DNA of 64,000 nt from an uncultured Candidatus Saccharibacteria bacterium (GTDB taxonomy: Bacteria > Patescibacteriota > Minisyncoccia > Phycocordibacterales > DATGWK01). Shown here one piece after another: positions 29,682 through 55,385 of the stretch. The DNA lies in assembly GCA_964356815.1 (NCBI GenBank), contig CAYHIR010000004.1:842-64841 (forward strand), read 5' to 3'. A model generated the notes under the pieces. That model saw only the letters and a program-made list of their open reading frames with translations. It did not search any database and was not told the origin of the DNA. The position numbers were made by a program, and so were the translations under genes. Each line of letters opens with the position of its first letter. Within the stretch, counting starts at the first letter, position 1.

Positions 29682-29780
29682 GTCGGCCGGCAAAATTTAG
29701 TGCAATAAGTTATTTTTAGGTGTATTATTGCCGCAGATTTTTATAGGTAATTTTATTAGGGGTTTTGCATTAAAAAATTT

Positions 29781-30932
29781 ATGAACAACACCGTAAAACT
29801 GATCGGCGGAATTATCGTCTTGGTTTTGATTGTTTGGGGCATTACAGCGTTTACAAATCCATCAGGAGCGCCGGTTTCTGAAACTGGTCCGATTAAGATT
29901 GGATTTATTGGCCCGCTTTCTGGTGATGCGGCAGTTTACGGAGAAACAGAAAAAAACGCAGTGGAAATCGCTTTAGAAGAAATTAACCAGAGCGGAGAGC
30001 TAAAAAGAAGACTTGAGGTTATTTATGAAGACGGAAAATGCTCTGGCAAAGATGCGGTCACGGCGGCTCAAAAATTGATTAATATCGACAAAGTTAGCAT
30101 TATTTTTGGTGGAGTGTGCAGCTCTGAAACATTGGGGTTGGCTCCAGTAGTAGAGTCGAATAAAGTCGTACTTTTCTCTGCTTTTTCTAGTAGTCCACTG
30201 ATTAGTCAGTCTGGAGATTATGTATTCCGCAACTCACCTTCTGATTCTGATTTTGGTAAAGCAGACGCAGAATTGATTGCATCACAAGGGATAAAGCGTG
30301 TTGCTATGATTAGCGAAAACTCTGATTACTCGCAAGGAGTGCGCGGAGTGATGAAAAATATTTTGCAACAGAAAAATATCGAACTTGTATCTGATGAGGT
30401 ATTTAATTCCGGCACAAAAGATTTTCGTACCAATCTAACTAAAATTAAATCAGCAAACCCAGAGGCTATTTATGTTAATTCTGGGACATCACCGGCGATA
30501 GCTGGGTCCATTCCAAAACAGATTGGAGAGTTGGGAATTAAGAACGTAAAAATATTCGGCAATTTCATGTTGGGAGATAAAGAAGCTCTAAGTGTCGGTG
30601 GTCAGGCAATGGAAGGAGTAATATTTAGTGACGCTAGAGATTTAACACAATCTGCCGGCTCCCTAATTGAAAAATATAAATCAAAATTTCAAAAGGATCC
30701 TGCTCACAATTATCCTATGGCAGCAAGATATGATTCAGTTTACATTATAAAAGACGCAATCAAGAGTTGTGGGGGAGATGATAGTAATTGTATAAAAAAA
30801 TATCTGTACGGTATGCCAGAGTATAGCGGCACGATTGGAATTTACAGATTTGATTCAAATGGGGATTTGTCGAGCGATCAGTTTGCTGTCCATAAAAAAA
30901 TTGTAAATGGGAAAGCCGTGGAAATAAAATAG
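29781..30932 (+). CDS. ABC transporter substrate-binding protein, branched-chain amino acid family (Peripla_BP_6), paralog 1
   Basis: N-terminal TM anchor, then IKIGFIGPLSGDAAVYGETEKNAVEIALEEIN, typical of LivJ/LivK-type binding proteins. Confidence 0.8.
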   Translation: MNNTVKLIGGIIVLVLIVWGITAFTNPSGAPVSETGPIKIGFIGPLSGDAAVYGETEKNAVEIALEEINQSGELKRRLEVIYEDGKCSGKDAVTAAQKLINIDKVSIIFGGVCSSETLGLAPVVESNKVVLFSAFSSSPLISQSGDYVFRNSPSDSDFGKADAELIASQGIKRVAMISENSDYSQGVRGVMKNILQQKNIELVSDEVFNSGTKDFRTNLTKIKSANPEAIYVNSGTSPAIAGSIPKQIGELGIKNVKIFGNFMLGDKEALSVGGQAMEGVIFSDARDLTQSAGSLIEKYKSKFQKDPAHNYPMAARYDSVYIIKDAIKSCGGDDSNCIKKYLYGMPEYSGTIGIYRFDSNGDLSSDQFAVHKKIVNGKAVEIK

Positions 30933-30958
30933 GATTTATCCCACTCTATTCTGTCTAT

Positions 30959-31510
30959 ATGGAATTGTTATTTTCTCTACCACTGATCATCCTGTACTCC
31001 ATCGCATTTGGAGTGGCAATGAAAGTCGCGGATTTGTTTAATGAGCATGGACTGAAGGAGCGTTTTCATGGTAATTCAATGATGTTTGGTGTTTTGTGCG
31101 GCATTTTCGGTGGTTTAATTGTTTGGAGCGATATTTATTTGGCTAATGCCGCCATGGCTTTAATGCTGGGTTATATTTTCAGGTTAAGAATTGACCATAG
31201 AAATCACGCAGTTGCGGCCGTGATTATAATTACAGCTTTCCTTTTTCGTGGCACGATCGATTTACCGACAATCATCTTTTTCTTTCTAACCTTCGCCATC
31301 TTTGGTGGCATAAGAGATTATCTTGACGATACCTTGCACAGCAAATCCGGCATCCAAAAAATATTTGAGGCCGGCTGGTATTTAATCATTCCACCCCTGA
31401 TTTATTCGTATTTCACAGGTCACTGGCTGGTGTCTTTGTTCCTAATTTTATTCATTGTCTCTTATGATGTTGTAAAATATGTGTGGGAAAAACCGATGAT
31501 TAATGCTTAA
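30959..31510 (+). CDS. Hypothetical polytopic membrane protein
   Basis: About five TM helices. Embedded in the transporter operon. Confidence 0.4.
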   Translation: MELLFSLPLIILYSIAFGVAMKVADLFNEHGLKERFHGNSMMFGVLCGIFGGLIVWSDIYLANAAMALMLGYIFRLRIDHRNHAVAAVIIITAFLFRGTIDLPTIIFFFLTFAIFGGIRDYLDDTLHSKSGIQKIFEAGWYLIIPPLIYSYFTGHWLVSLFLILFIVSYDVVKYVWEKPMINA

Positions 31511-31565
31511 TAATTCTGTGTAGTATATTTAACCCATTCTTTGTTTTTGTGCCCAATGTGTTTTT

Positions 31566-32432
31566 ATGGAAATCATTCCCCAACTCATAGTCAACAGCAT
31601 TATTGCCGGCGCGATTTATATGATGATTGCGCTTGGGTTTAATCTCATTTTCAGCACGGTTAAGTTTTTCGACCTTGGCTTCGGTGCGCTTGCGGCTGTT
31701 GGTGGTTATACAACTTTTTATTTTTCCAATCGCCTTGGCTGGAATATTTTTGTGGCGGTGGCGCTTGGTGTGTTGGTTGCGGGGCTTATTGGTTTTCTTA
31801 TAAACAAATTCGTCTATACTCGCCTATCGAAAAATAAGGCGTCGTCGATGGTGATGCTCGTGGCTTCGCTTGGTGTGCTCACGGCGGTGCAGGCTGTGAT
31901 CGCCATGCTTTTCACGAGTCAGTTTCAGGTGCTTTCTTCGGTCTTGAGTGCCACAAAGGTCTACAACATTTACACTGCGGCTATCACTGAGATTCAGCTC
32001 ATTATTCTCGCGTCGGGTTTGATAATTGCCGCTGGTTTAGCTTTGCTTCTCAAGTGGACGAAATTTGGCCGAGCAGTGCGAGCAATTGGTGACGATCGTG
32101 AGGTGTCGGAAATCGTCGGTATTGATACGCGAAAAGTGATCGGCCGGATTTTTTTCATCGGTTCGGCTATTGCGGGTTTGGCTGGCGTGCTCTTTGGCTT
32201 AGACACAGGCATTGAGCCAACGATGGGCCTCTCGCTTCTCCTCAAAGGTGTCATCGCTTCGATCATTGGCGGTGTGGGCAATGTCTGGGGCGGTGTCGCC
32301 GGTGCATTTATTCTCGGCTTTGTGGAAAATTTTGGCATCTGGAAAATTTCCGGTGAATGGAAAGATGCGATCGCTTTTGGGGTGTTGATTGTTTTCTTGC
32401 TGTTTCGACCAAACGGGCTTTTCAGGAAGTGA
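31566..32432 (+). CDS. livH: Branched-chain amino acid ABC transporter permease
   Basis: LivH-like N-terminus IIPQLIVNSIIAGAIYMMIALGFNLIF. Confidence 0.85.
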   Translation: MEIIPQLIVNSIIAGAIYMMIALGFNLIFSTVKFFDLGFGALAAVGGYTTFYFSNRLGWNIFVAVALGVLVAGLIGFLINKFVYTRLSKNKASSMVMLVASLGVLTAVQAVIAMLFTSQFQVLSSVLSATKVYNIYTAAITEIQLIILASGLIIAAGLALLLKWTKFGRAVRAIGDDREVSEIVGIDTRKVIGRIFFIGSAIAGLAGVLFGLDTGIEPTMGLSLLLKGVIASIIGGVGNVWGGVAGAFILGFVENFGIWKISGEWKDAIAFGVLIVFLLFRPNGLFRK

Positions 32433-32454
32433 GTCGGCGATTAAAATTTAACAA

Positions 32455-33321
32455 ATGGAATACTTAATTCATCTCGCAATCCTCGTCGGAATATACGCGA
32501 TGCTTGGCATATCGCTCAATTTGGTTGTGGGTTTCACTGGCCTGCTTTCCATCACTCAGGCGGCTTTCTATGGCATTGGTGGCTATGCGACGGCGATTTT
32601 GCTCACTGGTCTCGGTATGAATTTCTTTCTATCTGTCATCGCTGGTATCGTAATAACCGTTATTCTTAGCCTTATAATTGGCTTTGTGCTGAGCCGTTTT
32701 CGTGGCGACTTTTTCGCTCTCGGCTCTTTTGGTTTCAACATCATCATCTATAGCGTCCTTCTAAACTGGCAATCACTCACCCGCGGTCCGCTTGGCATTC
32801 CAGGCATTCCGCGCCCGTCACTTTTCGGCTATGTTTTTTCGGAAAACTTAAGCTTCTTGGTGCTCGTGATAGTTTTTGCCGCTCTCACCTATTTGCTCGC
32901 CCACTTTGTCACCCGATCTTCTTTCGGTCGCGTACTCAAAGCCATTCGCGAGGATGAAGAAGCGGCGGCGGTTTTTGGTTACAACACGCTCGTCTATAAG
33001 CTCACAATTTTCGTCATCTCAGCGGCTATTGCATCGGTTGCTGGTTCCCTTTTTGCTTCCTACATCACTTTCATCGACCCCTCGACTTTTGTTTTAAACG
33101 AATCGATCTTTATTCTTTCAATAATTATTCTCGGCGGCCTTTCTAGCCTGCGCGGCTCGGTACTCGGCGCGATCATTCTCATTCTTTTGCCCGAAATCTT
33201 GCGTTTTGTCGGTTTTCCAAGCGACATTGCCGCTCAAATGCGTCAATTTGTCTACGGTCTGCTTTTGGTTATACTGATGATGTATCGCCCTCAGGGCTTG
33301 GTTGGGGAGTATAAGCTTTAG
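32455..33321 (+). CDS. livM: Branched-chain amino acid ABC transporter permease
   Basis: LivM-like polytopic protein adjacent to livH. Confidence 0.8.
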   Translation: MEYLIHLAILVGIYAMLGISLNLVVGFTGLLSITQAAFYGIGGYATAILLTGLGMNFFLSVIAGIVITVILSLIIGFVLSRFRGDFFALGSFGFNIIIYSVLLNWQSLTRGPLGIPGIPRPSLFGYVFSENLSFLVLVIVFAALTYLLAHFVTRSSFGRVLKAIREDEEAAAVFGYNTLVYKLTIFVISAAIASVAGSLFASYITFIDPSTFVLNESIFILSIIILGGLSSLRGSVLGAIILILLPEILRFVGFPSDIAAQMRQFVYGLLLVILMMYRPQGLVGEYKL

Positions 33322-33361
33322 GGGGGGGTTATTAAAAAAGGCGGTAAATAGGGCGAAAAAT

Positions 33362-34510
33362 ATGAAAAACACAATAATCTGGATAGTCGCAGCAGCAGTA
33401 ATTCTCGGCGGAATCTGGCTGTATCAGACGAAAAATGGTGATCAGGTTGGAACATTGGAAAATGGTGATCAGAAAACTCTCAATATTGGCGCACTTCTTC
33501 CTTTTAGCGGTCCAGCGGCATTTTATGGCGATCAGGCAAGAATGGGCGTTGAGCTTGCCAAAGAAGAAATGGCCGCAACGTATCCAAATCTAAATATCGT
33601 TGTCTCCTACGAGGATTCTTTCTTTACTCCGAAAGGTGGTGTTGATGGTTATAACAAATTGAAAAATACCAGCGGGCTTGATGCAGTTATTACTGGCGGT
33701 AGCCCGGTTTCTATGGCTGTAGCAGCACTGAGTAAGCAAGATGATTTGCTCCAGATGGGAATTTTTAGTGCCACCGATCTGTATACTTCGCCAGACGATT
33801 TAACTTTTCGAGTTACTACCAGAGTCTCTGTTGACCTAGAAAACACAATTGCTTTTTATCTTGAGAAAAAATTTAGTCGCTTGGCCATTGTTTATCTTAA
33901 TAATGATTTTGGTGCAAGTTTCCGAAATTCGCTGAAACAAAAAATCGATCAGGATAAATTGCCGATAAGTGTTGTGGCCGATGAGGGATTCCTTCTTGAT
34001 GCCAGCGATTTCCGCACGATTCTTCTGAAGGTAAAACAAAGCAATCCTGATGTGATTTTCATTGCTGGCACCACGCCACACAATGCCAAACTTCTTGTTC
34101 AGGCCAAAGAACTTGGAATCAAAACACAGATTACAAGCGTGCGAACTATCGAGGATCCAAATTTGTTCAAGACCGCAGGTAATGCCGCCGACGGAGTAAT
34201 CTTTACGGCTATCTTTGATGCTGATTCGGATCATCAGCCGACTAAAGATTTTATCAAAAGTTTTTTTGAAAGATACAACACAACACCTGACACTTATGCC
34301 GCTGAAGGCTACGAAGGTATGAAACTTACTGCACGGGCTTTGGCAAAATGTACCTCCGTTGACGCAGAATGTCTTAAAGAGGTGATGGCGGACCTAAGCG
34401 ACCACTCACCAATGTTCAAAGATTTTCATTTCGACCAAAACGGTGATCCGTTGTATGCGTTGTTCCTGAAGACAATTAAAAACGGGCAGTTCGTTAAATT
34501 AGAAAATTAA
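33362..34510 (+). CDS. ABC transporter substrate-binding protein (Peripla_BP_6), paralog 2
   Basis: LNIGALLPFSGPAAFYGDQARMGVELAKEE. Start moved to the internal Met 33362. Confidence 0.8.
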   Translation: MKNTIIWIVAAAVILGGIWLYQTKNGDQVGTLENGDQKTLNIGALLPFSGPAAFYGDQARMGVELAKEEMAATYPNLNIVVSYEDSFFTPKGGVDGYNKLKNTSGLDAVITGGSPVSMAVAALSKQDDLLQMGIFSATDLYTSPDDLTFRVTTRVSVDLENTIAFYLEKKFSRLAIVYLNNDFGASFRNSLKQKIDQDKLPISVVADEGFLLDASDFRTILLKVKQSNPDVIFIAGTTPHNAKLLVQAKELGIKTQITSVRTIEDPNLFKTAGNAADGVIFTAIFDADSDHQPTKDFIKSFFERYNTTPDTYAAEGYEGMKLTARALAKCTSVDAECLKEVMADLSDHSPMFKDFHFDQNGDPLYALFLKTIKNGQFVKLEN

Positions 34511-34520
34511 AATAATCACG

Positions 34521-35645
34521 ATGAATAAAAAAACAGCAATCTGGATAATCGTCGCAATCGTAGTCATCGGTGGAATCTGGTTCTATCAGACGAAAACTGG
34601 CAGTCAAACAGCAACACAAAATACTGAAGGTAAGATCCTAAAAATCGGCGCCATCTTGCCTCTTAGCGGACCAATCGCCAGCGCTGGTGGCTTCGCTAAA
34701 AATGGTATAGAAGAAGCTCTCGCTGATATTGCTGAAGACAAAAATCTAAACATCGAAGTTATTTTTGAGGACGGCCAATACGATGCCAAAACGTCTGTTT
34801 CGGCTTACAACAAATTAAAAACTGTCGATGGTGTTGATGCGCTGATTGTTTTTGGCACACCGTCTGTTATGTCTATTGCTCCGCTTGTGAATGCCGATCG
34901 TATTCCCCTTCTCGGTTTGCTAGCCGCGCCAAATTATTCTAGCCCCGATGACTTCACCTTCCGCATGATGGGTCACTCAGACACCGAAGCCAAATTTGCT
35001 TCAGATATTTTGGTAGACAAACTTGGTAAAAAGAAAATCGCGGTTATGTATTTAAACAACGATTACGGCACTGGCGCTTTGGCTTCATTTAAAAAATATG
35101 TTGCTGGCCGAGCAACTGTCGTAGCCGAAGAGGGTTCAGCCCCTGGTACAACCGATTATCGCGCTCAGCTCACAAAGATCAAAAATACTGCCCCAGACGC
35201 AATTTTCCTCGCTACTCTCTATAAAGAAGGTGGTCTGATCGTCAAACAAGCTAAGGAAATGGGCATTGCTGGGCCGTTTATGTGTGGCCAGCCATGTGAT
35301 GTGCCAGAGCTTATTACCACTGCCGGCGCGGCATCCGAAGGCCTTATTGTGGTTGCGCCTACAGACAAAAACGGTACTGGTTTCATCGACGAATATCAAA
35401 AAATCTATGGTGCCCGCCCAAGCTATCTTGCTCTTAGAACTTACGACGCCACAAACATTCTAAACTCAATCGCTCCAAACTGTGCGTCGAGCAATTTCTC
35501 TGGCGACTGTCTCAAAAAACAAATTGACGATCTAAACGGTTTCCCCGGTCTTTCCTACCCCATCAACTTCGATAATAATGGCGACATAAATGATCAGTTT
35601 GTGGTGAAGGTTATTAAAAATGGTAAATATGAGGCTTATGAATAA
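34521..35645 (+). CDS. ABC transporter substrate-binding protein (Peripla_BP_6), paralog 3
   Basis: LKIGAILPLSGPIASAGGFAKNGIEEALADI. Confidence 0.8.
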   Translation: MNKKTAIWIIVAIVVIGGIWFYQTKTGSQTATQNTEGKILKIGAILPLSGPIASAGGFAKNGIEEALADIAEDKNLNIEVIFEDGQYDAKTSVSAYNKLKTVDGVDALIVFGTPSVMSIAPLVNADRIPLLGLLAAPNYSSPDDFTFRMMGHSDTEAKFASDILVDKLGKKKIAVMYLNNDYGTGALASFKKYVAGRATVVAEEGSAPGTTDYRAQLTKIKNTAPDAIFLATLYKEGGLIVKQAKEMGIAGPFMCGQPCDVPELITTAGAASEGLIVVAPTDKNGTGFIDEYQKIYGARPSYLALRTYDATNILNSIAPNCASSNFSGDCLKKQIDDLNGFPGLSYPINFDNNGDINDQFVVKVIKNGKYEAYE

Positions 35646-36792
35646 AGCAATCTGGACGATAGTCGTTGTCATCATATTAGTTCTCGCACTTGGCTTCATT
35701 GCTAAAGACAAAACGAGAAATTCAGAGTCGTCTGGTGAGCCGATAAAGATAGGTAGTATATCGGCACTGACTGGCGTTGGTGTAGCCGTTGGAGAAGAAG
35801 AAAGAAGGGGCGCAGAGCTTGCGGTTGAAGAGATAAATGAAAATGGTGGTGTGATTGGACGACCGCTAAAACTTATAAGCGAAGATCTTTCGATTGATAA
35901 ATTAAAAAATGCCGGTTTGGTAACCAGTAAGCTTATAAATGTTGATAAGGTGGTTGGGATTATTGGTGCCCAATGGGATGAGCCGGCAGCTGCTGTTCTA
36001 CCTATTATCGAAAAAGCCATGATTCCGATGATTGGTCCCAACGTTACTGACTCCATTGAAACAAACAACCTCGGCGACTATCTTTTTTCGACCTGGTATG
36101 ACAATCGTGTTGGTATAAACACGATTTTAGAATATGCAAAGCAAAAAGAATTTAAAACTGGCACTATAATTCGCATTTTTGACGGTGGTTTCTGGAAATT
36201 TACATCGGATCTTGTTGCAAAAAATGCCCCAGCATACGGCATAAAAATTATTGATGACATAAACATAAATAATCCATTGTCGAATGATTTTCGAACTTTT
36301 ATCACCAAAGCTAAAGCGAAAAATCCCGATTTTATTTTCTTTGTAACGTCAGACCCGAGCCAATGCGTTTTCTTCAAACAAATGAAAGAGCAAAATTTTG
36401 ATGTGCCTGTTCTTACAACCGAAGCGGCTGGCAACAGCGCTTCTCTCGCGCAATGTCCTGAGGATTTGGCTAATTTGTACTTCAGTACTCCTTCGCCGAA
36501 ACATGATAGATACAAGGTTTTTGAAAAGTCGTTTATTGAAAAATATGGCAGAAAACCACTCTTCCCCTCGGCAGTTACCGCCTATGACGCAGTACGTATA
36601 ATGGCTTCTGCTTTGGAAAAAACCAATGGAAAAAGCGGCAAAGATTTGCAGATAGCTCTATCAGAAACCAAAGATTTTCTAGGGGCCTCCTTGCCAAATA
36701 TCACATTCAAAGAAAATGGTTTTGTGCTTACCCCTGATGATATTTTTGAGATGCAGACTGTACGCGGTGGCGAGTTTGTGAGGGTCGAGTAG
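35638..36792 (+). CDS. ABC transporter substrate-binding protein (Peripla_BP_6), paralog 4
   Basis: IKIGSISALTGVGVAVGEEERRGAELAVEEINENGG. Its start overlaps the stop of paralog 3. Confidence 0.8.
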   Translation: MNKAIWTIVVVIILVLALGFIAKDKTRNSESSGEPIKIGSISALTGVGVAVGEEERRGAELAVEEINENGGVIGRPLKLISEDLSIDKLKNAGLVTSKLINVDKVVGIIGAQWDEPAAAVLPIIEKAMIPMIGPNVTDSIETNNLGDYLFSTWYDNRVGINTILEYAKQKEFKTGTIIRIFDGGFWKFTSDLVAKNAPAYGIKIIDDININNPLSNDFRTFITKAKAKNPDFIFFVTSDPSQCVFFKQMKEQNFDVPVLTTEAAGNSASLAQCPEDLANLYFSTPSPKHDRYKVFEKSFIEKYGRKPLFPSAVTAYDAVRIMASALEKTNGKSGKDLQIALSETKDFLGASLPNITFKENGFVLTPDDIFEMQTVRGGEFVRVE

Positions 36793-36800
36793 AACAATCA

Positions 36801-37469
36801 ATGAAAAAAGTAAATCCGGTAACGACAAAAAATCTACTAAGGGAAATAAAGACTCAGAAGTCTAAAATCAAATTCGTTAACGGTCTTCGGATTAAGGTTT
36901 GTCGCGGTGTTTTCCCGCCGCAAAGTCGGTGGTCTCGATCATCTAAACCCATTCACGACCTACTTGTCGATGTGAGTGGTAAAAAGGTTTTGGATATTGG
37001 CACGGGCACTGGTGTCCAAGCAATACACTCGGCTAAAAGCGGTGCTGAGATGGTCGTCGCTACAGACATAAATCCCGAAGCTGTTGAATGTGCAAAATTT
37101 AATGTCTCTCTAAACGGTTTCGAAAATAAAATCACTGTTTTTAAAAGCGATCTGTTTAAAAGTGTGCCGAAAGAAAAATTTGATGTCATCATTGCAAATT
37201 TACCTATAACCGACTATCTAGCCAAAGGTATTGTGTCTGCAGCTCTGTACGATCCGGACTATAAAATTCATAAAAGATTTTTCAAAAATGCCGGCGTATA
37301 TCTAAAAGCAGATGGATACATTCTCATGTCCCACATCAATTTTAAGGGCAAGGATGATTTCGACGACTTTGAAAAAATGATTGCAAAACATGGTTATAAA
37401 GTTGATAAATATGCAGACAAAAAGGCGTTGGGGTATACTTGGAGGATATATAAGATAAGTCGCAAATAA
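36801..37469 (+). CDS. Class I SAM-dependent methyltransferase (MTS-type small domain)
   Basis: VLDIGTGTGVQAIH, then DIN, then DVIIANLP. Confidence 0.6.
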   Translation: MKKVNPVTTKNLLREIKTQKSKIKFVNGLRIKVCRGVFPPQSRWSRSSKPIHDLLVDVSGKKVLDIGTGTGVQAIHSAKSGAEMVVATDINPEAVECAKFNVSLNGFENKITVFKSDLFKSVPKEKFDVIIANLPITDYLAKGIVSAALYDPDYKIHKRFFKNAGVYLKADGYILMSHINFKGKDDFDDFEKMIAKHGYKVDKYADKKALGYTWRIYKISRK

Positions 37470-37476
37470 TTTAAAA

Positions 37477-38211
37477 ATGTCTATTCTCCAAACCAAAAAC
37501 CTTCTCAAACAATTCGACAGCATCAAGGCTGTTGATCATCTTTCGATTACTATTCCTAAAGGCAAAATTACGGGCATAATCGGGCCAAATGGCTCGGGCA
37601 AAAGTACGCTCATAAATTTGCTCACAGGCATCATTCCGCTCACTGGCGGCGCTGTTGTGCTTCACGAAAAAATTCATCTAAGCCGCATCAAGTCGCATGA
37701 AGTGCCGGCCTATGGCATGACGCGCACTTTCCAGGACGTTCGCCTCTTCGAGCAAATGCCGGTGCTCGACAACGTCCTTCTCGCGCTTACCGAAAGAAAT
37801 GTTTGGAGTGCGATTTTTGAACGTCACAAAAAATTTCACCTCGAGCGCGCTGAAGAAGTTTTGAAACGCGTCGGCTTGTGGGAAAAGCGTGCTGAGCTTG
37901 CCGTCAATCTTTCCTACGGCCAGCGTAAGCTCTTAGAAATCGCTCGCGCTCTCGCCATGAACGCTGAAATCTATCTTTTCGACGAGCCTTTCGCCGGCCT
38001 TTTTCCTGAAATGATCAAAATCGTCGTCTCTATCGTTAAAGAACTCCGCGCCGCAGGCAAAACCATCATCCTCATCGAGCACAACATGACTCTCATCCGC
38101 GAACTTTCCGATCATGTCATCGTCATGGACAGCGGCAAACTTCTCGCCGAAGGCGAACCAGAAAAAGTCCTCCGCGAAAAACAAGTGGTGGAGGCGTATT
38201 TGGGGGAGTAA
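37477..38211 (+). CDS. livG: Branched-chain amino acid ABC transporter ATP-binding protein
   Basis: Walker A GPNGSGKST. LSYGQRKLLEIARAL signature. Walker B LFDEP. Confidence 0.85.
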   Translation: MSILQTKNLLKQFDSIKAVDHLSITIPKGKITGIIGPNGSGKSTLINLLTGIIPLTGGAVVLHEKIHLSRIKSHEVPAYGMTRTFQDVRLFEQMPVLDNVLLALTERNVWSAIFERHKKFHLERAEEVLKRVGLWEKRAELAVNLSYGQRKLLEIARALAMNAEIYLFDEPFAGLFPEMIKIVVSIVKELRAAGKTIILIEHNMTLIRELSDHVIVMDSGKLLAEGEPEKVLREKQVVEAYLGE

Positions 38212-38212
38212 A

Positions 38213-38956
38213 TTATTCCGTCTTCTTCCACATAATTTCAAAAATCTGTCGGAATGTTTTTGTAACGTCTGGATTTTCTATAATGATCGCTTGCAGATAA
38301 TTGTTAATAAAAATTCGAACGAATGTATCGGCAACTTCTATAGATGTGTTTGATGAATAATCACTCACTGGTAATTTTTTAAATATTCTTCCGTACTCCG
38401 CGTCCTTTTCTCTCCATTCTGTAAGCACTTCGTCGTCTGGTGCAAGTCCACGTACCTTTATTCCTCCTTCCATCATCACTTTTTTATTCAATCGTCTAAA
38501 AAACGACAAAAGTTCTGCGGGCGTGCCTTCGTCTGGCTTTGCATAAAATCCGACAACTTCTTTTCCCCTCAATTCTTTTGCTCGATATCTGATCGCTTCT
38601 TCCATACCTTTCAAACCCTCGAAGTAAAGAGTTTTCACTTCCACCTTGCTCTCATCGGCGACGCGCTCAAGCTCAGGCAAAACTTTTTTTGCTTGGCGCA
38701 TACGCTCTTCGGCGATAGCAAATACTTCGTGTGGTGGCTTAGCAATGAAAAGCTGTTTTTTGACACGCGGAATTTTAAATACAAAGCCCTTTTTTATGAG
38801 TTCTCCTATAACCACATACGCTGTGGGCTTCTTCAGGCCAGATTTCTCCGCCACTCCATAAGCGGATCCCCTTCCAAGGCCGAGTAGAGCGACGTAAACG
38901 CGCGCTTCTTTGTCTGAAAGGCCAAGCGTAAATAGAGCATTTGTTATTTCATCCAT
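38213..38956 (-). CDS. TrmB-family transcriptional regulator
   Basis: N-terminal wHTH LGLSDKEARVYVALLGLGRGSAYGVAEKSGLKKPTAYVVIGELIKKGFV. Confidence 0.65.
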   Translation of the reverse strand: MDEITNALFTLGLSDKEARVYVALLGLGRGSAYGVAEKSGLKKPTAYVVIGELIKKGFVFKIPRVKKQLFIAKPPHEVFAIAEERMRQAKKVLPELERVADESKVEVKTLYFEGLKGMEEAIRYRAKELRGKEVVGFYAKPDEGTPAELLSFFRRLNKKVMMEGGIKVRGLAPDDEVLTEWREKDAEYGRIFKKLPVSDYSSNTSIEVADTFVRIFINNYLQAIIIENPDVTKTFRQIFEIMWKKTE

Positions 38957-39135
38957 AAATTGTTGCTTTTGCGTATATCCTTATACTAGTCAAAAATGCA
39001 ATTTAGTCAATAAAGTTGATGATTTATCATAGAACCTTAAAAAATCCTTTGTTTAATTCATAAAATAGGTATTTTGTACTCAATCTTTATGTACTTATTT
39101 GGCACATTTGACGGCATACTATAACATGTTGTCAT

Positions 39136-40296
39136 ATGAATAATACAAACAATACGAAAAAGATTCTGATTGGCGTCGTGGTGCTTGTTTTGATTATCGG
39201 TTTTGTTGCCTATTTTTCTGCCACACTCTCTGATTCACCGGAAAAAGTGGCAAAAGAGCTGAACATTGGCCTGATTTCCATTCTCAGCGGCGATTATGCG
39301 GCTTCTGGAGAAAACATAAAGAACGGAGTCGTCCTTGCTTCTGAGCAATACAATAAAATTCACCCAGAGAGCCCCATTCACCTTTTTATTGAAGACGATG
39401 GATTTAGTAGCCGCAAAGGTGTGAGTGCGTATCAAAAACTCACCTCTCTCAATCATATTGATGGACTCATTAATGTCTCTACACCGACAATCGATTCTAT
39501 TTATGAGTCCGTAGTAAAAGATGGTATGCCAGTTATCCAAGGTGGTGAGCAAGGCAGTAAGCCGCTTGCCGACAATGTATTTGGTATTTTTCCAGACAAT
39601 GTTGATTCTGAATATGATTACGGCGTTTATCTTAGAGAAAAAGGTGTCAAAGAAATGGTGGTGGTTTATACGAGAAATGATGCGATGATTCGGTTTGTCG
39701 AAGCGTTTAAGGCTGGTTTTCAGGGGAAAACGACGGATTTTGTAATAGACGGAGCAGAGAAAGATTTTAAAACACATGCGCTTAAAGTTTTTGCCGCTCA
39801 CCCATCAACTGTCGGCTTATTTATTTTTCCACAGCAAGGTGCATTGTTTATAGAAGAATATCTTGCGCTTGAAAAAAATAATTCGCAAAGCTCGGGTCAA
39901 AACTCAGGGCAAAGTGCGCCGCAAAATAAAGCGCAATTATTTTTTGACGCCAATTTCCAATCCGGTTTTGTAGACTACAAACGTATTCTCGGCGACACGA
40001 AAATTCTAGATGGTGCAATTGTCGGCACGATTGATCTGGCTTCCAGTGAAGAATTTAAAAAGCTCTACACAGAGCGCTTCGGCACAGAGCCACCTTTTCT
40101 CGCAGATATTGGCTACGACATGTTTAATGTTCTTGTCGAAACTCACTCTCCAGACAAAAAGGAGTGGGTTGAAAATATTCAAAATCTACACACAGCTGGT
40201 GCGAGCGGCGATATCGAATTTGGTCTGACCGGCAATCGCAAGCCAAAAACCAAAATGATGACTGTGAGAGGTGGGGAGATTGTCGATCCGCTTTAG
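39136..40296 (+). CDS. ABC transporter substrate-binding protein (Peripla_BP_6-like), paralog 5
   Basis: LNIGLISILSGDYAASGENIKNGVVLASEQYN. Confidence 0.7.
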   Translation: MNNTNNTKKILIGVVVLVLIIGFVAYFSATLSDSPEKVAKELNIGLISILSGDYAASGENIKNGVVLASEQYNKIHPESPIHLFIEDDGFSSRKGVSAYQKLTSLNHIDGLINVSTPTIDSIYESVVKDGMPVIQGGEQGSKPLADNVFGIFPDNVDSEYDYGVYLREKGVKEMVVVYTRNDAMIRFVEAFKAGFQGKTTDFVIDGAEKDFKTHALKVFAAHPSTVGLFIFPQQGALFIEEYLALEKNNSQSSGQNSGQSAPQNKAQLFFDANFQSGFVDYKRILGDTKILDGAIVGTIDLASSEEFKKLYTERFGTEPPFLADIGYDMFNVLVETHSPDKKEWVENIQNLHTAGASGDIEFGLTGNRKPKTKMMTVRGGEIVDPL

Positions 40297-40341
40297 TCAA
40301 AATTAAAAGAAAGTTTATCCTCTTTATGCATTATTCTACTA

Positions 40342-40809
40342 ATGCAAAAGGATTTTGATACTTGGAACAAGGAGAAAAAGATGGTCGATCAAAAAACGGT
40401 TAATCGAGATCTATTTTTTCATGCACGAGAAATTTGGTGGTGTAGCGCCGGACTTAATGTTGGTGTTGAGGTAGATGGTAAAAATGAAAACTTCGAGAGA
40501 CCAATGCTTATTATCAAAAAATTTAATGCCGATATGCTTTGGGTGTTGCCACTCACAACAAAAGAAAAACAAAATAAGTATTTTTATGAGTTAAAACACG
40601 AGTTTATAAAGTCTCGGGTCTTGTTGTCTCAAATTAAAACTATCAGTACTAAAAGACTGTTGCGCAAATTTGGAACTGTAACGGAGTCAGATTTTAAACA
40701 GATTATTTCTACGATCCGAGATATCCTGATAAACGAAAACCCCCTTTCGGGGGCCTTCGCGGAGGCCGAAGCCACTAATGCACAAAGTATAGACGAAAAT
40801 AAAAAATAA
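40342..40809 (+). CDS. MazF/PemK-like endoribonuclease toxin (solitary)
   Basis: REIWWCSAGLNVGVEVDGKNENFERPMLIIKKFNADMLWVLPLTTK and SRVLLSQIKTISTKRL fit the PemK/MazF consensus. No antitoxin ORF is nearby. Confidence 0.5.
   Translation: MQKDFDTWNKEKKMVDQKTVNRDLFFHAREIWWCSAGLNVGVEVDGKNENFERPMLIIKKFNADMLWVLPLTTKEKQNKYFYELKHEFIKSRVLLSQIKTISTKRLLRKFGTVTESDFKQIISTIRDILINENPLSGAFAEAEATNAQSIDENKK
40740..40773 (+). repeat. Tandem GC-rich hairpins (CCCCCTTTCGGGGG; CTTCGCGGAGGCCGAAG) inside the 3' end of the MazF-like ORF
   Basis: Two consecutive self-complementary GC-rich segments in an otherwise AT-rich gene tail. Confidence 0.4.
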
Positions 40810-40886
40810 GTCAAGTCTTCGGTCTCAAACTTGCCTTTTGGGCGTTAATTGATAACCTTTAACTGTATTATTAACAACAGACTTTA

Positions 40887-42074
40887 ATGAATAAAACTCT
40901 AAAAATAGTAATCGGATTGGTAATTCTTGTTGTAATTGTCTGGGCGGTCTCATATTTTAAAGATAAAAATTCTTCTAATACGGGTGCAGATTCTGGTGGT
41001 GTTATAAAGATCGGTATAATTGCTCCTCTTACTGGCACAGCTTCTTCTTACGGCGTGGAAGGCAAAAATTCAGTCGTACTAGCATTTGATGAAATCAATG
41101 CATCTGGAGGTATTGCTGGGAAGAAAATTGAATACACTGTAGAAGACGGTAAATGTGATGCAAAAGCGTCTATTGATGCTTGGACCAAATTGGTTAGCGT
41201 AAATAAAGTCAGTATGGTTTTTGGCGGGCATTGTAGCACTGAAACCATGGCCATTGCCCCTCTTTCGGCGCGAGACAATGTTCCAGTGTTTGCTGTCTTT
41301 ACTACTACCCCAGTTATTCCAAATGAAGGTGAATGGCTTTTCCGACATGTTTCTACAAATGAGTACTACGGAACAATCCTAGCTGGGCAAGCTTTCAAAA
41401 GTGGCCACAAAAAGGCGGCGGTTTTAACGGAAGTTAAGGATTTCCCGGTAACTTATTCAGACGCTTTCATCAAGGCTTACAAGGCTTTAGGTGGCGAAAT
41501 CGTTCTTGATGAGCGCTTTGACCCACAAACAAAAGACTATCGAACAATTGCTCTTAAACTTAAAGGACTCAACTACGATACGTTGTTTATAAACACACAA
41601 GGTGCGGATGTTGCGGGTCTAATTACAAATCAAATTAAAGAGCTGGGTCTCGGTAAGGCGTATCTATACAATCACGCTTTTGCACCAGCAAAATTCTTGG
41701 AAATAACTAAAGGTTATATGCCCGCTGACTATATAATCGTCAGTCCGTTTACTGACCCTAATACGCCAAAGGTGAAGGCATTTAATTCGGCTTACACAGA
41801 AAAATTCGGAGACATTTATAAATTCTCGACGTTCTTCGTCACTGCTGATTATGATTTAGTCCACCGTGTTAAAGACGCGGCCGATGCGTGCCAAGCTTCT
41901 GTTGGTTACAGCATCGATTGTGTTCGCGATCAGTTTAAAGCTGCCACATCTTACGCTGGTGTTGCCGGTAATGTGACTGTTAGTTCCCAATACTCTCCAA
42001 AAGGTGTTTTGACCCCTGTCGGTCTTCTAAAGGTTGGTGTTGGTGGTGCGACTACTATAGAGCCGGTGAAATAG
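40887..42074 (+). CDS. ABC transporter substrate-binding protein (Peripla_BP_6), paralog 6
   Basis: IKIGIIAPLTGTASSYGVEGKNSVVLAFDEINASGG. Confidence 0.8.
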   Translation: MNKTLKIVIGLVILVVIVWAVSYFKDKNSSNTGADSGGVIKIGIIAPLTGTASSYGVEGKNSVVLAFDEINASGGIAGKKIEYTVEDGKCDAKASIDAWTKLVSVNKVSMVFGGHCSTETMAIAPLSARDNVPVFAVFTTTPVIPNEGEWLFRHVSTNEYYGTILAGQAFKSGHKKAAVLTEVKDFPVTYSDAFIKAYKALGGEIVLDERFDPQTKDYRTIALKLKGLNYDTLFINTQGADVAGLITNQIKELGLGKAYLYNHAFAPAKFLEITKGYMPADYIIVSPFTDPNTPKVKAFNSAYTEKFGDIYKFSTFFVTADYDLVHRVKDAADACQASVGYSIDCVRDQFKAATSYAGVAGNVTVSSQYSPKGVLTPVGLLKVGVGGATTIEPVK

Positions 42075-42101
42075 TGCAATTAATATTTTTCTGCTCGATT
42101 T

Positions 42102-43118
42102 ATGAACAACACCACAAAAACCGTCATCGGAATTGTCGTCCTGGCGCTGATCGTTTGGGGAATTGCCGCTCTCACTAAGTCAAAAAATGATGCAGAAAAT
42201 TCAACAGAAGGGCAAAAAATAAAGGTTGGCCTTATTGCTCCCCTTTCTGGACCCGTTGCTGATTACGGAGAAGAAATAAGAAAGGGTGCAGTTGCTGGTG
42301 CTGTTGAGGGAGTTGAGCTTGTCATCGAAGATGAAAAATGTGATCCAAAAGAGGCCGTTTCGGCTTTTCAGAAGCTGACCGATTTCCAAGATATTCATTT
42401 CATTTTAGGTCCAGAGTGTGGTTCGCCACAGGAAGCAATCGTACCCCTGCTTAAAGGCAAAGAAATTATTTCTATGGTTTCGGCCGCCGCATCTTCGGAT
42501 TTGTTTGCGCAAAGTGGCGGCAATTTTTTCAACGTCCAATATTCCCTTCAAGACGAATCAAAATACGTTGCTGAGAAAATGTATGAATTAGGATATCGAA
42601 ATGTTGCGTTGGTAAGCTACGGCAATGCTTTTTCGCAGGCTCACACTGATAGTTTTAGAAAATCGTTCAAAGGAAAAATTATCTTCGATACTACAATAAT
42701 CGATCCAGCGAGCGATGTTTCGACAGAAGTTGCCAAGATAAAAGCGGCTAAAGTTGACGCTATTTATTCTCCAGACATTTCCTTTTTCTTCGCGAGTGGA
42801 GCCGCAAAGCTAGAGCAATATAAGGTCACTGCCCCTGTATTTTCTACTTACGTTGCTGAGCTTCCGGCGGTTCGCACGCTTGTCCCAAATGTCTATTACT
42901 CATTTCCAGGTGACATAACTGGCGATCAGGGCGCTGTCTACGAGCTTTCCAAACAAGCTTCTGCCATACTCACTGGCGCAGTGGTAGATTGTGACGGCGA
43001 ATATCAGTGTGTTAAAAATAAGCTCGTCTCGTCTGGTTTATTTAACGAAAATGGAGTCTACAAACGCTCTATTGTGTTGAAGCAGATAAAAGGTGGGGTG
43101 CCGGTTGATGTAAAATAA
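42102..43118 (+). CDS. ABC transporter substrate-binding protein (Peripla_BP_6), paralog 7
   Basis: IKVGLIAPLSGPVADYGEEIRKGA. Confidence 0.75.
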   Translation: MNNTTKTVIGIVVLALIVWGIAALTKSKNDAENSTEGQKIKVGLIAPLSGPVADYGEEIRKGAVAGAVEGVELVIEDEKCDPKEAVSAFQKLTDFQDIHFILGPECGSPQEAIVPLLKGKEIISMVSAAASSDLFAQSGGNFFNVQYSLQDESKYVAEKMYELGYRNVALVSYGNAFSQAHTDSFRKSFKGKIIFDTTIIDPASDVSTEVAKIKAAKVDAIYSPDISFFFASGAAKLEQYKVTAPVFSTYVAELPAVRTLVPNVYYSFPGDITGDQGAVYELSKQASAILTGAVVDCDGEYQCVKNKLVSSGLFNENGVYKRSIVLKQIKGGVPVDVK

Positions 43119-43122
43119 TGAA

Positions 43123-44229
43123 ATGAAGAAAACTTTTTGGGTTGTAGCACTACTTATCATTCTGGGCGCTATTTGGTTTGCAACAAAAAACGGTACTAAT
43201 GATGTTACTCAAACATCAATAAAAATTGGTGGTAATTATGCTCTTAGTGGTTTTGGCGCTGGTTGGGCCGAAAATCAATTAAAGGGCGCAATGCTTGCTG
43301 TGAAAGAGATCAATATGGCTGGCGGGGTATTGGATAAACAACTCGAGTTTATTGCTGAAGACAACCACAGTGAGGCAAAAGGTTCCGTTTCTGCCGCCAA
43401 TAAGCTCATATCTGTAGACAAGGTAAAATTCATGCTCACGGGCTGGAGTGATCAGACCGAGCCAGTGATTCCTATTATCGATCAAAACAAGATTGTAACT
43501 ATTACGACTTCAGCGGGTGCTAGTGATTTAGCAAAAAAAAGTGAATACCTATTTGCAACATGGCCTGTTGATAGAATTGCTGTTAAATCGCTTGCGGATT
43601 ATTCTTCAATGAAAGGATTTGGACGTGTTGCTATTGCCAACAGTATTGGACCTTGGGAAAATTCTCTAGCGGAGTCGTTTAAAGAATTTGCTGGAAAAAA
43701 AGGGTTCCAGGTACTTCTCCATGTTTCTTTTCAGTTAGATACTGTAGATTTTAAAACTCAAATAGCCCAATTGAAAGAACAGAAAATCGACGCTGTTTTT
43801 ATTCCGATGACCGATGCCACTGTGGATAGATTTCTAAAACAAGCTGGCGAACTTGGTCTAAATGCTACGATGCTATACCCGGTTGATGCTATATCCGTTG
43901 GTATAGATGAGCAACCTGCCGCTTATATAAAAAATCTAGTATACGCTATCTACGCACCCTCAAAAGAAAAATTTGTTATGGCATTTAGAAAGGAATACGG
44001 AATAGATCCGGGTGCTTCAGCTGATACAGCCTACGACGCTGTTTATATGATTGCTCAGGCCATTGAAAAAGCTGGCACTACCGAGACTGACAAGGTTATA
44101 AATTCTTTCACTCCGTTTGACGGTGCTTCAGGGAAAACTGTTTTCGATCAATACGGAGACAGATCAGATGCAGAGGTCATTCTCATGGGTTTTGATGGTG
44201 TGACTAGAGTACCGCAAAAGATTAGATAG
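43123..44229 (+). CDS. ABC transporter substrate-binding protein (Peripla_BP_6), paralog 8
   Basis: IKIGGNYALSGFGAGWAENQLKGAMLAVKEINMAGG. Confidence 0.75.
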   Translation: MKKTFWVVALLIILGAIWFATKNGTNDVTQTSIKIGGNYALSGFGAGWAENQLKGAMLAVKEINMAGGVLDKQLEFIAEDNHSEAKGSVSAANKLISVDKVKFMLTGWSDQTEPVIPIIDQNKIVTITTSAGASDLAKKSEYLFATWPVDRIAVKSLADYSSMKGFGRVAIANSIGPWENSLAESFKEFAGKKGFQVLLHVSFQLDTVDFKTQIAQLKEQKIDAVFIPMTDATVDRFLKQAGELGLNATMLYPVDAISVGIDEQPAAYIKNLVYAIYAPSKEKFVMAFRKEYGIDPGASADTAYDAVYMIAQAIEKAGTTETDKVINSFTPFDGASGKTVFDQYGDRSDAEVILMGFDGVTRVPQKIR

Positions 44230-44255
44230 GAGAATATAACATCTCAAAAAACTCG

Positions 44256-44993
44256 ATGCTAACCAAAGAAACCCTCCTCAAAACCCACAATCTTCACGTC
44301 CACTACGGTGGTGTACGAGCACTCGATGGTGCTTCAGTGGAAATAGATGAGGGTGAGATTGTGGCACTTATGGGGCCAAATGGTGCGGGCAAATCTACTG
44401 TTTTGAAGGCGATTTTTGGTATTGCGCCGGTTGCTTCGGGCGAGATTTTTTGGCATGGCAAGCCGATCAAGCCGGTGCCTCACGAGGTGGTCTCGCTAGG
44501 CATTTCTTTTGTGCCCCAAGGTCGCCGGGTTTTTAAGCATCTGACCGTCTACGAAAACATCGAAATCGGTGGCTGGGCGGTGCCGGAGCGACATGTGGTG
44601 AAAGAGCGGATTGCCGAAGTCCTCGACCTCTTCCCCGCTCTCAAGGCCAAGCTCAGCGCCAAGTCGGGCACTCTCTCTGGTGGCCAACAGCAAATGGTGG
44701 CTCTCGCCCGCGGCCTCATGACCGATCCCAAAGTTCTTCTTCTCGACGAGCCATCTCTCGGCCTCGCTCCAAAAATCGTCAAAGAAGTTTTCGAAAAAAT
44801 TCGAGAAATAAATGAACGACGCAAAACCGCAATTGTTGTCGTTGAGCACAATATTAAATCTCTTCTCGAATTCACCGACCGCGCTTATGTTTTAGACAAA
44901 GGAAAGGTTGTCGCTGTGGCTCCTGGTAAAGATTTTCTAACCAACGACACACTCGAAAAAGTTTTTATGGGGCGATTTGTGGGACAGGTTTAG
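44256..44993 (+). CDS. livF: Branched-chain amino acid ABC transporter ATP-binding protein
   Basis: Walker A GPNGAGKST. LSGGQQQMVALARGL signature. LLLDEP. Confidence 0.85.
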   Translation: MLTKETLLKTHNLHVHYGGVRALDGASVEIDEGEIVALMGPNGAGKSTVLKAIFGIAPVASGEIFWHGKPIKPVPHEVVSLGISFVPQGRRVFKHLTVYENIEIGGWAVPERHVVKERIAEVLDLFPALKAKLSAKSGTLSGGQQQMVALARGLMTDPKVLLLDEPSLGLAPKIVKEVFEKIREINERRKTAIVVVEHNIKSLLEFTDRAYVLDKGKVVAVAPGKDFLTNDTLEKVFMGRFVGQV

Positions 44994-45060: not shown

Positions 45061-45255
45061 TCATAGAGCTCCAACATAGGAAGCTATTTTTTTCGGCATG
45101 TGAGTGAGAAGTGGTGTGTCAGAACTTTTTTTTCTTGCTTGCAACACAGCTTCGCGCACAGTTTTGCCTGCGCCAAGTACGGTTTGTTCGTCTTTGGCTA
45201 GGGCTACCCATAGACCTTTGTATTTTTTGTGTATTTTTGTCCAATTTATGCTCAT
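45061..45255 (-). CDS. Small DUF5678-like protein
   Basis: KYKGLWVALAKDEQTVLGAGKTVREAVLQARKK pattern. 64 aa. Confidence 0.3.
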   Translation of the reverse strand: MSINWTKIHKKYKGLWVALAKDEQTVLGAGKTVREAVLQARKKSSDTPLLTHMPKKIASYVGAL

Positions 45256-54931: not shown

Positions 54932-55003
54932 GCGCCCATGGTGAAATGGATATCACAAGCGACTTCGGATCGCTTATTGTGGGTTCGAGTCCTGCTGGGC
55001 GCA
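54932..55003 (+). tRNA. tRNA-Arg (anticodon TCG)
   Basis: Manual cloverleaf. Acceptor GCGCCCA/TGGGCGC, U8, D-arm, anticodon stem AGCGA/TCGCT, loop CTTCGGA, T-arm GTGGG-TTCGAGT-CCTGC. Confidence 0.7.
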
Positions 55004-55035
55004 CTGCGAAGACAGATATAAGACAAGTTTCATAC

Positions 55036-55106
55036 GCGGGTATGGTTTAGTGGTAGAATGCGTCCTTGCCAAGGACGAGACGAGAGTTCGATTCTCTCTA
55101 CCCGCA
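55036..55106 (+). tRNA. tRNA-Gly (anticodon GCC)
   Basis: Acceptor GCGGGTA/TACCCGC. Anticodon stem CGTCC/GGACG with loop TTGCCAA. T-loop GTTCGATTC. Confidence 0.85.
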
Positions 55107-55180
55107 CACTAAAGGACCATAGGGGTCAAAAGACAGTAAAAAGGCCAAAACTGTGGATAAGTCTGGGGACATGTGTATAA
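55098..55180. repeat. Further TAAAGGAC motif copies (CTAAAGGACCA 55100; TATAAAGGACAT 55166) directly after tRNA-Gly
   Basis: The same core recurs in the xth-cca gap and twice inside cca. Confidence 0.4.
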
Positions 55181-55265
55181 AGGACATTTTCGTAAAAGTC
55201 AGTGATTTTTTGTCCTATATCTATTAAATGGCTATAAACAAAGGTTTTTGAGAGTTTTCTCTGTG

Positions 55266-55385
55266 TTTCACGTGAAAAACGGTGCGTTTGAGACTGTTTT
55301 GGGGCAATTTTAGGCATATTTAAACGAAAAAGTGTTTCTTAAGAAACGTTTCGACCCTTCTCCTGGGGGGGTATTTCACGTGAAA
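55266..55385. repeat. Palindromic GTTTC-N4-GAAAC sites: TTTCACGTGAAA at 55266 and 55374; GTTTCTTAAGAAAC at 55333
   Basis: Three perfect 12-14 bp palindromes clustered within 180 bp upstream of the YraN-like gene start. Confidence 0.55.

Follow-up and report, generated by a model that had tools for sequence, protein, structure and literature searches.

We predict that the liv-type locus at positions 29781-44993 of the window (the whole stretch of DNA analysed here, 64,000 nucleotides (nt) long) encodes an ATP-binding cassette (ABC) importer of the HAAT family (LivHMGF-type) that works with interchangeable receptors and by which an auxotrophic, Paceibacteria-type member of the Patescibacteria takes up amino acids or related small acids. 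We assign this reading a probability of about 0.7. The locus encodes the components by which HAAT systems are recognized: two BPD_transp_2 permeases, two ATPases (one with BCA_ABC_TP_C) and substrate-binding proteins (SBPs) of the Peripla_BP_6 family. From the sequence, we infer uptake of amino acids or related solutes that is SBP-dependent and driven by ATP; the transport mechanism itself is conventional. The proteins are labelled 'Patescibacteria group bacterium' by NCBI, and the idea of the initial annotation that the organism is an auxotrophic scavenger fits this source, as Patescibacteria metagenome-assembled genomes (MAGs) from the same site, Hainich, lack biosynthesis for most amino acids (PMC8672522).

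Open reading frames (ORFs) were listed and profile searches (Pfam, NCBIfam) were run. All sixteen genes of the initial annotation were found in the order and on the strands that it gave, including eight SBPs, one livH/livM permease pair and one livG/livF ATPase pair (Pfam). The features are the following (lengths in amino acids (aa) or base pairs (bp)):

29781..30932, + strand: SBP1, LivJ-like core binding protein of the lineage (Peripla_BP_6, E 7e-55)
30959..31510, + strand: 183-aa polytopic membrane protein without a Pfam or NCBIfam match, with ~5 hydrophobic segments
31566..32432, + strand: livH-type permease (BPD_transp_2, E 2.4e-40, full profile)
32455..33321, + strand: livM-type permease (BPD_transp_2, E 2.5e-48, full profile)
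33362..34510, + strand: SBP2, accessory binding protein (Peripla_BP_6, E 3e-49)
34521..35645, + strand: SBP3, accessory binding protein (Peripla_BP_6, E 6e-46)
35638..36792, + strand: SBP4, accessory binding protein (Peripla_BP_6, E 2e-45)
36801..37469, + strand: S-adenosylmethionine (SAM)-dependent methyltransferase, PrmA/HemK2-like (PrmA and MTS, E 1e-18)
37477..38211, + strand: livG-type ATPase (ABC_tran; BCA_ABC_TP_C at 26.3 bits, cut-off 25.5)
38213..38956, - strand: TrmBL2-like transcription regulator (TrmB helix-turn-helix PF01978, E 1.6e-14, residues 10-75)
38957..39135, no strand: divergent intergenic region between trmB and SBP5, 179 bp, the only long gap of the locus
39136..40296, + strand: SBP5, most divergent binding protein (Peripla_BP_6, E 1.7e-20)
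40342..40809, + strand: MazF/PemK-like endoribonuclease toxin, solitary (PemK_toxin, E 2.9e-13)
40887..42074, + strand: SBP6, accessory binding protein (Peripla_BP_6, E 3e-50)
42102..43118, + strand: SBP7, compact binding protein of 338 aa (Peripla_BP_6 over the N-terminal half only; AlphaFold2 (AF2) model)
43123..44229, + strand: SBP8, accessory binding protein (Peripla_BP_6, E 5e-51)
44256..44993, + strand: livF-type ATPase (ABC_tran, E 1.7e-34)

Independent gene calls on an identical contig point to ATG 33362 (382 aa), not TTG 33302, as the most likely start of SBP2, and to 35638 (384 aa) as that of SBP4.

Membership of the SBPs in Peripla_BP_6, proposed in the initial annotation, is borne out by the profile search, with all eight above the Pfam cut-off of 31.7 bits (E 1.7e-20 to 7e-55). 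Pairwise identities of 24-35% over near-full length identify them as separate genes and not fragments. The nearest pairs are SBP2/3 (35% identical), SBP1/6, SBP1/7 and SBP4/8, and SBP5 is the outlier. Judged by this divergence, the SBPs are old paralogs that separated long ago, not recent copies. We consider refuted the explanation that the expansion is an artefact of gene fragments, recent tandem duplicates or chimeric assembly. Contig L005 and the window part ways less than 90 nt into SBP8, as such an artefact might, but the proteins are full-length and divergent, and orthologs of every SBP type but SBP8 occur in other genomes. Furthermore, six contigs from other assemblies of Hainich groundwater well H41 match the window at 99.9-100%, and the five independent contigs besides L005 do so across the locus and its flanks. 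Thus, misassembly is unlikely. Contig L005 (Hain_H41_02um_R1_6833) tracks the window until ~88 nt into the 5' end of SBP8 (window 43123-43211) and then continues with unrelated sequence that includes a tRNA-synt_1b fragment (L005 9388-9820); SBP8 is there 345 aa long and anchorless. The break is due to strain variation or to a chimeric join at repeated anchor-coding sequence.

Loci of the same kind are widespread in related genomes. A LivM scan of one genome per species recovered 80 related loci, the ORFs of which were classified against the window proteins. Almost all are from Parcubacteria/Paceibacteria MAGs, and identity to the window is 56-77% for LivM, 48-77% for LivH and 52-74% for LivF. 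The minimal related locus consists of an SBP1-type gene followed by livH, livM, livG and livF, and extra SBPs are located between livM and livG, between livG and livF, or upstream. Counted over 10 kb around livM, the loci have between 0 and 11 SBPs, with at least seven in 15 of the 80. Thus, liv loci with many SBPs recur, and the eight in the window are a high number within a widespread pattern rather than a unique case. The SBPs of the related loci form 45 clusters at 35% identity (68 at 40%). The 35% cluster that holds SBP1 and SBP6 is represented in 52 of the 80 loci and the 40% cluster of SBP1 itself in 41; where members of the SBP1 cluster occur, the SBP that best matches SBP1 is usually directly upstream of livH. 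The SBP5 cluster has 25 members in 17 loci, and SBP8 is a singleton that lacks a relative above 35% in any of the 80 (every other SBP type has orthologs elsewhere).

The packing of these genes bears on whether all eight receptors serve one translocator. It is quite unlikely that the accessory SBPs feed translocators encoded elsewhere, or are orphan receptors for several systems, so that sharing is overstated. Only 64 kb of the genome are in view, and an orphan SBP with a distant membrane complex is known (BraC3; PMC2978685). However, the eight SBP genes are packed between and beside the four core genes (with gaps of -8 to 77 nt inside each transcription unit and the 179 nt between trmB and SBP5 as the sole long one), and no other liv or SBP gene was found in the remainder of the window. 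Dozens of small genomes show the same interleaving; one of the 80 loci, on a 716-kb chromosome, has 11 SBPs within 20 kb.

The interpretation that a single importer with shared receptors transports amino acids or related acids draws on the closest solved structures. For SBP1, 3, 4, 6 and 8 these are amino-acid-binding HAAT proteins (E 1e-21 to 1e-34): 3TD9, 4N0Q and LivJ/LivK for SBP1 (E 1e-29 to 1e-34), 3TD9 and 4GNR for SBP3, 4GNR and 4NQR for SBP4, and 4GNR and 8TG1 for SBP8. The best PDB sequence match of SBP5 has an E value of only 7e-6. None of the SBPs scanned (SBP1, 2, 4, 5, 7 and 8) reaches the NCBIfam cut-offs for LivJ/K (NF011933) or UrtA. The best NF011933 score is that of SBP1 (155.7 bits, cut-off 477), SBP2, 4, 7 and 8 score 57-108 bits, and SBP5 gives no match.

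For comparison of the binding pockets, the SBPs were aligned to LivJ, the sequence and numbering of which were checked against 1Z15. The ligand contacts are those of the LivJ/LivK structures, namely Tyr18, Ser79, Thr102, Tyr150, Tyr202 and Glu226. SBP1 retains Tyr18, the Cys53-Cys78 pair, Ser79, a Ser at 102 and Tyr150. SBP6 retains Tyr18, Cys53-Cys78, Ser79 and Thr102, a LivJ-like N-lobe signature, and SBP7 keeps Tyr18 and the disulfide with Gly79 and Ala102 in place of Ser79 and Thr102. Lacking in SBP2-5 and SBP8 is the LivJ disulfide, and their N-lobe contact residues are replaced (SBP2 has Pro at 79). Signatures of the orthogroups were read from 244 SBPs of the related loci. Cys53-Cys78 and Ser79 are present in 62-65 of 79 members of the SBP1/6 cluster, Trp78, Asp79 and Phe150 in 7/7 of the SBP4 orthogroup, Gln at LivJ position 102 in 25/25 of the SBP5 group, and Gly79, Ala102 and Tyr226 in 7/7 of the SBP7 group. 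Pocket positions therefore differ between SBPs yet are conserved within each orthogroup, which argues for distinct, selected specificities and for different ligands of the eight predicted receptors. Residues ~247-270 of SBP5 (~39870-39950) form a low-complexity insertion rich in Gln, Ser and Asn (NNSQSSGQNSGQSAPQNKAQ) that is missing from the other SBPs.

SBP7 is the short member of the set, and only its first half matches the Pfam profile. Nevertheless, its subfamily comprises more than 120 clusters, nearly all of ~320-350 aa, and the AF2 model is a complete two-lobe SBP (pLDDT 92.9) with TM-scores of 0.76-0.80 to 3TD9 (Thermotoga LivK) and 4EVQ (Rhodopseudomonas palustris). We give little credence to the alternative that some SBPs, notably SBP7 and SBP3, are LpoA/LppC-like penicillin-binding-protein activators, or surface sensors or adhesins. 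Weak LppC matches in Pfam (SBP7 E 7e-4, SBP3 E 8.5e-3), the replacement of LivJ Ser79 and Thr102 in SBP7, and the NCBI name 'penicillin-binding protein activator' given to several SBP7 homologs speak for it. However, the LppC scores of 15-19 bits are under the 28.8-bit cut-off, and of the 50 best fold matches to the SBP7 model almost all are ABC SBPs or LivJ-derived constructs, the rest being the related GABA-B receptor domain, with no LpoA among them. Homologs picked by SBP7 similarity alone are also found in liv operons beside livF, again between livG/TrmB and livF.

Each SBP was initially described as having an N-terminal membrane anchor, and all eight do possess a hydrophobic segment of their own. 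The N-termini consist of a Lys-rich start, 18-23 uncharged hydrophobic residues that include no Cys, and a polar linker of 9-18 residues, after which the first strand reads [IL][KN][IV]G. As the N-terminal segment has no cysteine, there is no lipobox. The length of the segment favours its prediction as a retained (uncleaved) anchor. Residues 3-31 of the SBP7 model are helical and are followed by a disordered linker. Long repeats in the locus are confined to anchor-coding 5' ends: those of SBP1 and SBP7 are 74% identical in nucleotides over 81 nt (29777-29857 and 42098-42178), and those of SBP2 and SBP3 are 78% identical over 74 nt (33365-33438 and 34527-34600). The rest of each pair is much less alike (~35% protein identity), and the shared 5' ends may be due to gene conversion or to a common constraint on the anchor.

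The receptor set differs even between close relatives. The livM, livG, toxin and SBP7 blocks are common to the window and to locus L091, which is from the same well and encodes a LivM that is 98% identical in protein (88% in DNA). In L091, a single SBP of another kind stands where the window has SBP2-4 and the methyltransferase; 37 nt occupy the position of trmB and SBP5, and a toxin fragment that of SBP6. The liv locus of the window is flanked by ComM-like and LysM/M23 genes (28689-29681 and 45326-46942). In L138 (12395-15285), a more distant relative, the LysM/M23 peptidase and ComM-like genes are direct neighbours and the liv locus is missing from between them; thus, the 15-kb locus, together with a DUF5678 gene (45061-45255), is an insertion or deletion relative to L138. 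GC content at third codon positions (GC3) is 0.51-0.57 in the core liv genes and 0.32-0.42 in the SBPs. As a sign of horizontal origin of the SBPs this is suggestive at best, because GC3 across the window genes spans 0.28-0.62.

Somewhat short of even odds, we consider it possible that the Paceibacteria liv locus is a hypervariable array of receptor cassettes. A conserved LivHMGF would accept dozens of SBP families that look unrelated, around a third of them with their own co-diversifying TrmBL2-like regulator, cassettes would be swapped even between close relatives, and the SBP set would record the host or habitat metabolites that are needed. An integron-like array was considered and rejected. 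No repeated cassette-boundary elements of the integron/attC kind were found between the genes (the repeats detected are within coding regions), and the tyrosine recombinase closest to the locus (50164-51141), at a distance of 5 kb, is syntenic in L138, which has no liv locus at that site.

Toxin-antitoxin cassettes are known to stabilise chromosomal integrons. We regard as unlikely the corresponding explanation for this locus, in which it is mainly a selfish, hypervariable cassette array and the toxin-type genes are addiction modules that stabilise the accessory SBP cassettes; the toxin would then contribute to the working of the array. The variable cassette content of close relatives is compatible with it, as is the GC3 of SBPs and passengers (0.32-0.44), which is below that of the core liv genes. 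PemK-like genes also recur inside related liv loci (L029, L031 (two), L042, L048, L091 and L142 (two)), and the L141 liv locus contains DUF6922+AbiEii, RhuM and bAvd-like genes. However, no antitoxin gene accompanies the toxin, the cassettes have no repeated boundary element between them, and the GC3 range of the window is wide. Moreover, liv genes are near only one of 49 metagenomic loci with toxin homologs, so that a specific tie between this toxin and liv loci was rejected. The closest homologs (71-72%; L096 9169-11839, also L088, L089 and L095) are instead inserted in a polysaccharide (glycan)-export locus, where they separate the ABC-2 permease gene from that of the ATPase. The position there, as here, is in the middle of an ABC-transporter operon.

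The toxin itself matches PemK_toxin at 50.4 bits (cut-off 23.1) over profile positions 4-109 of 109. Across 39 homologs Arg53-Pro54 does not vary and Pro-Leu-Thr/Ser72 is conserved, with Thr or Ser as its last residue in 39/39. Arg53 aligns with Arg25 of Bacillus subtilis MazF, and Thr72 with Thr48 only after a one-residue shift; Arg25 and Thr48 are the catalytic residues of that enzyme. The flanking gaps of 45 and 77 nt contain no ORF and hence no antitoxin gene, and no conserved small neighbour was identified across 44 homolog loci. There was neither a PADLOC match nor a PDB sequence match.

In the preferred reading of a single importer with many receptors, the toxin and the 183-aa membrane protein are incidental passengers and not transporter parts. 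The membrane protein is missing from all 80 related loci and has a 47% homolog outside any liv locus; thus, we rejected it as a transporter component. Its family has ~131 representatives and is unannotated. Fusions in the family (members P0147, P0149, P0156 and P0244) to an 8xMP or AdoMet_dc (AdoMet decarboxylase) domain give no functional lead. The methyltransferase is probably a passenger too. A homolog precedes livG in one of the 80 related loci (L027), and the gene is missing from L091. It is below every NCBIfam cut-off (PRK14968, 104 of 162 bits; hemK_rel_arch, 73 of 87; prmA, 58 of 183), and what its sequence establishes is only a generic SAM-methyltransferase domain. Asn-Leu-Pro-Ile occupies the site of NPPY in HemK-type enzymes. 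A PADLOC match to mad2 (E 3e-28, profile positions 279-426 of 492) probably reflects generic methyltransferase-domain similarity; no other defence gene is adjacent.

The livH-livM junction looks like an insertion hotspot in related loci. PemK-like genes are present at this junction in L029, L031 and L042. A small four-helix-bundle protein is encoded directly upstream of livM in L008 (9514-9927), L021 (3012-3431), L075 (9587-9967) and L141 (1011-1400). In L141 it is 23S_rRNA_IVP/bAvd-like and confirmed between livH and livM; in the other three it lies within the livH-livF span. Proteins of the bAvd-like type are linked to diversity-generating retroelements. The window has a gap of 22 nt between livH and livM, free of four-helix-bundle and PemK-like genes.

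The initial annotation regarded the interleaved genes as atypical for liv operons. For the TrmB gene this holds only in comparison with textbook operons, as in this lineage it belongs to a regular regulator-plus-SBP cassette. A profile search identified 92 TrmB-like genes in the 80 loci, and 78 of these (85%) are head-to-head with an SBP gene. The regulator is thus a normal cassette partner. SBPs with a divergent TrmB-like partner make up 31% of the total and are spread over 15 SBP clusters. Regulators beside SBP5-type genes are 41-48% identical to that of the window (in L009, L011, L025 and L031 they are divergent from SBP5-cluster genes), whereas other regulators are 20-29% identical, which indicates that regulator and receptor diversify together. 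The regulator is 247 aa long, and its AF2 model (pLDDT 93) matches TrmBL2 structures 5BPD, 5BQT and 5BOX over the full length (Foldseek, E 1e-13; 5BPD best). The C-terminal domain is phospholipase D (PLD)-like and also matches PLD3 and F13 (Foldseek). In the NCBIfam TrmB/TrmBL1 models only the N-terminal ~110 residues align (21-27 bits, cut-offs 600-650). The sugar-binding subdomain of the sugar-sensing TrmB/TrmBL1 regulators is missing, and there is no full-length match to them. A second TrmB-like paralog at 60617-61411 (- strand) is 22% identical to the regulator of the locus.

The plus-strand genes form two blocks, SBP1-livG and SBP5-livF, split at the 179-nt gap, and the second block, downstream of the divergent region of the regulator, includes the gene of an essential ATPase, livF. 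This region presumably contains the promoters and an operator for trmB and for SBP5 to livF. The sequence TAGTCAA(T/A)A (minus strand TTGACTA, -35-like) is also present in the corresponding regions of L009, L011, L025 and L031. No convincing shared palindrome that could serve as a TrmB operator was found in the 179-bp region and these four counterparts.

We propose that the SBPs would be tethered at the outer face of the membrane by the uncleaved N-terminal helix and a short flexible linker. SBP1 and SBP6, which are LivJ-like, would capture amino acids, and the other SBPs amino acids or related small organic acids. A loaded SBP would dock on the LivHM channel, and ATP hydrolysis by LivGF would power uptake. 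In this reading SBP1 is the core receptor of the lineage, and SBP2-8 are accessory cassettes inserted on either side of livG, in the livM-livG and livG-livF intervals. The TrmBL2-like regulator and SBP5 make up a divergent cassette that is conserved, and from the 179-bp region the regulator probably controls the second unit (SBP5, toxin, SBP6-8, livF). The toxin, the 183-aa protein and probably the methyltransferase would be passengers in a recombination-prone locus.

Several points weigh against this proposal. 'Amino acids' is a family-level guess, because the SBPs scanned score below the curated cut-offs and the C-lobe pocket is poorly aligned. The ligands, the docking of all eight SBPs on the translocator, and the regulation are inferred, and a second HAAT translocator is possible elsewhere in the genome, of which the window covers 64 kb. 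The effector of the regulator is not evident, given a TrmBL2 architecture that lacks the sugar-binding subdomain. The three closest homologs of the regulator on long contigs have no SBP or liv neighbours, and a regulator family dedicated to SBPs was therefore rejected. When the locus was scanned for promoter and terminator consensus sequences, shuffled sequence gave equal counts, so the two-unit operon model relies on gene spacing.

Outside the locus, four tRNA genes are loosely clustered at 54932-57572 (Arg-TCG, Gly-GCC, Pro-TGG, Gly-TCC), and no other Rfam family is above threshold anywhere in the window.

What Candidate Phyla Radiation (CPR)/Patescibacteria bacteria take from hosts or surroundings is a central question, as almost none are cultivable. 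With a few dozen small soluble-domain receptors that can be screened in vitro, all for one conserved engine, this locus and its relatives open a practical way to learn which nutrients uncultured CPR bacteria depend on. The presence of 8-11 receptor genes for one importer in genomes of ~0.7-1 Mb is a pointer to where selection acts, and the regulator-plus-receptor cassettes are rare candidates for specific gene regulation in reduced genomes. If the locus is indeed a hypervariable array, the SBP set of each organism is a record of the host- or habitat-specific metabolites on which it depends. In literature of limited coverage, TrmB regulators were nowhere connected with Patescibacteria and SBP expansion was nowhere described for CPR liv loci; absence is in both cases weak evidence.

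The locus is predicted to operate in the manner of known importers that have several receptors. Receptor sharing is established for Escherichia coli LivJ/LivK. As in LivJ/LivK-LivHMGF (HAAT, TC 3.A.1.4), the locus encodes two BPD_transp_2 permeases, a LivG with the C-terminal motif, a LivF and more than one Peripla_BP_6 receptor per translocator, and SBP1 and SBP6 keep the LivJ N-lobe signature. Unlike that system, there are eight receptors rather than two, with 24-35% mutual identity and interleaved among the core genes. The SBPs are predicted to be membrane-anchored, whereas those of E. coli are periplasmic and soluble, and LivM is short (288 aa). An experimental precedent for such sharing is BraDEFG of Rhizobium leguminosarum, in which BraC and the orphan SBP BraC3, of different specificity, share the membrane complex (PMC2978685). 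It differs in having two receptors, an orphan encoded elsewhere, soluble periplasmic SBPs and a free-living host with a large genome. In the Opp system of Borrelia burgdorferi, five differentially regulated OppA binding proteins, three of them encoded in tandem, use a shared permease and ATPase, and each is predicted to bind a distinct ligand range (PMC5736914). Both systems combine many binding proteins with a shared core, and Borrelia is likewise an extreme amino-acid auxotroph with a reduced genome. However, Opp belongs to the peptide family, with cluster C SBPs, lipoprotein receptors and oligopeptide ligands, and the OppA paralogs are within-genus duplications, whereas the lineage of the window has at least 45 SBP families.

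Aromatic-acid HAAT SBPs of R. palustris (4EVQ, 4EVS, 4EY3; identity 16-18%), in which the same fold binds ligands other than amino acids, are among the best fold matches to the SBP7 model. The regulator resembles TrmBL2 of Thermococcales (5BPD, 5BQT) in its winged helix-turn-helix, coiled coil and PLD-like C-terminal domain. Identity is 18-21% and the sequence equivalog cut-off is not reached (NCBIfam TrmBL2, 22.7 of 530 bits); thus, the likeness is one of architecture and not of orthology. TrmBL2 is a chromatin-like global repressor, whereas the regulator here is bacterial and locally paired with a receptor gene. The locus is set apart from these known systems by the number and diversity of its receptors, their interleaving and anchors, the paired TrmBL2-like regulators, and the rapid turnover of its cassettes.

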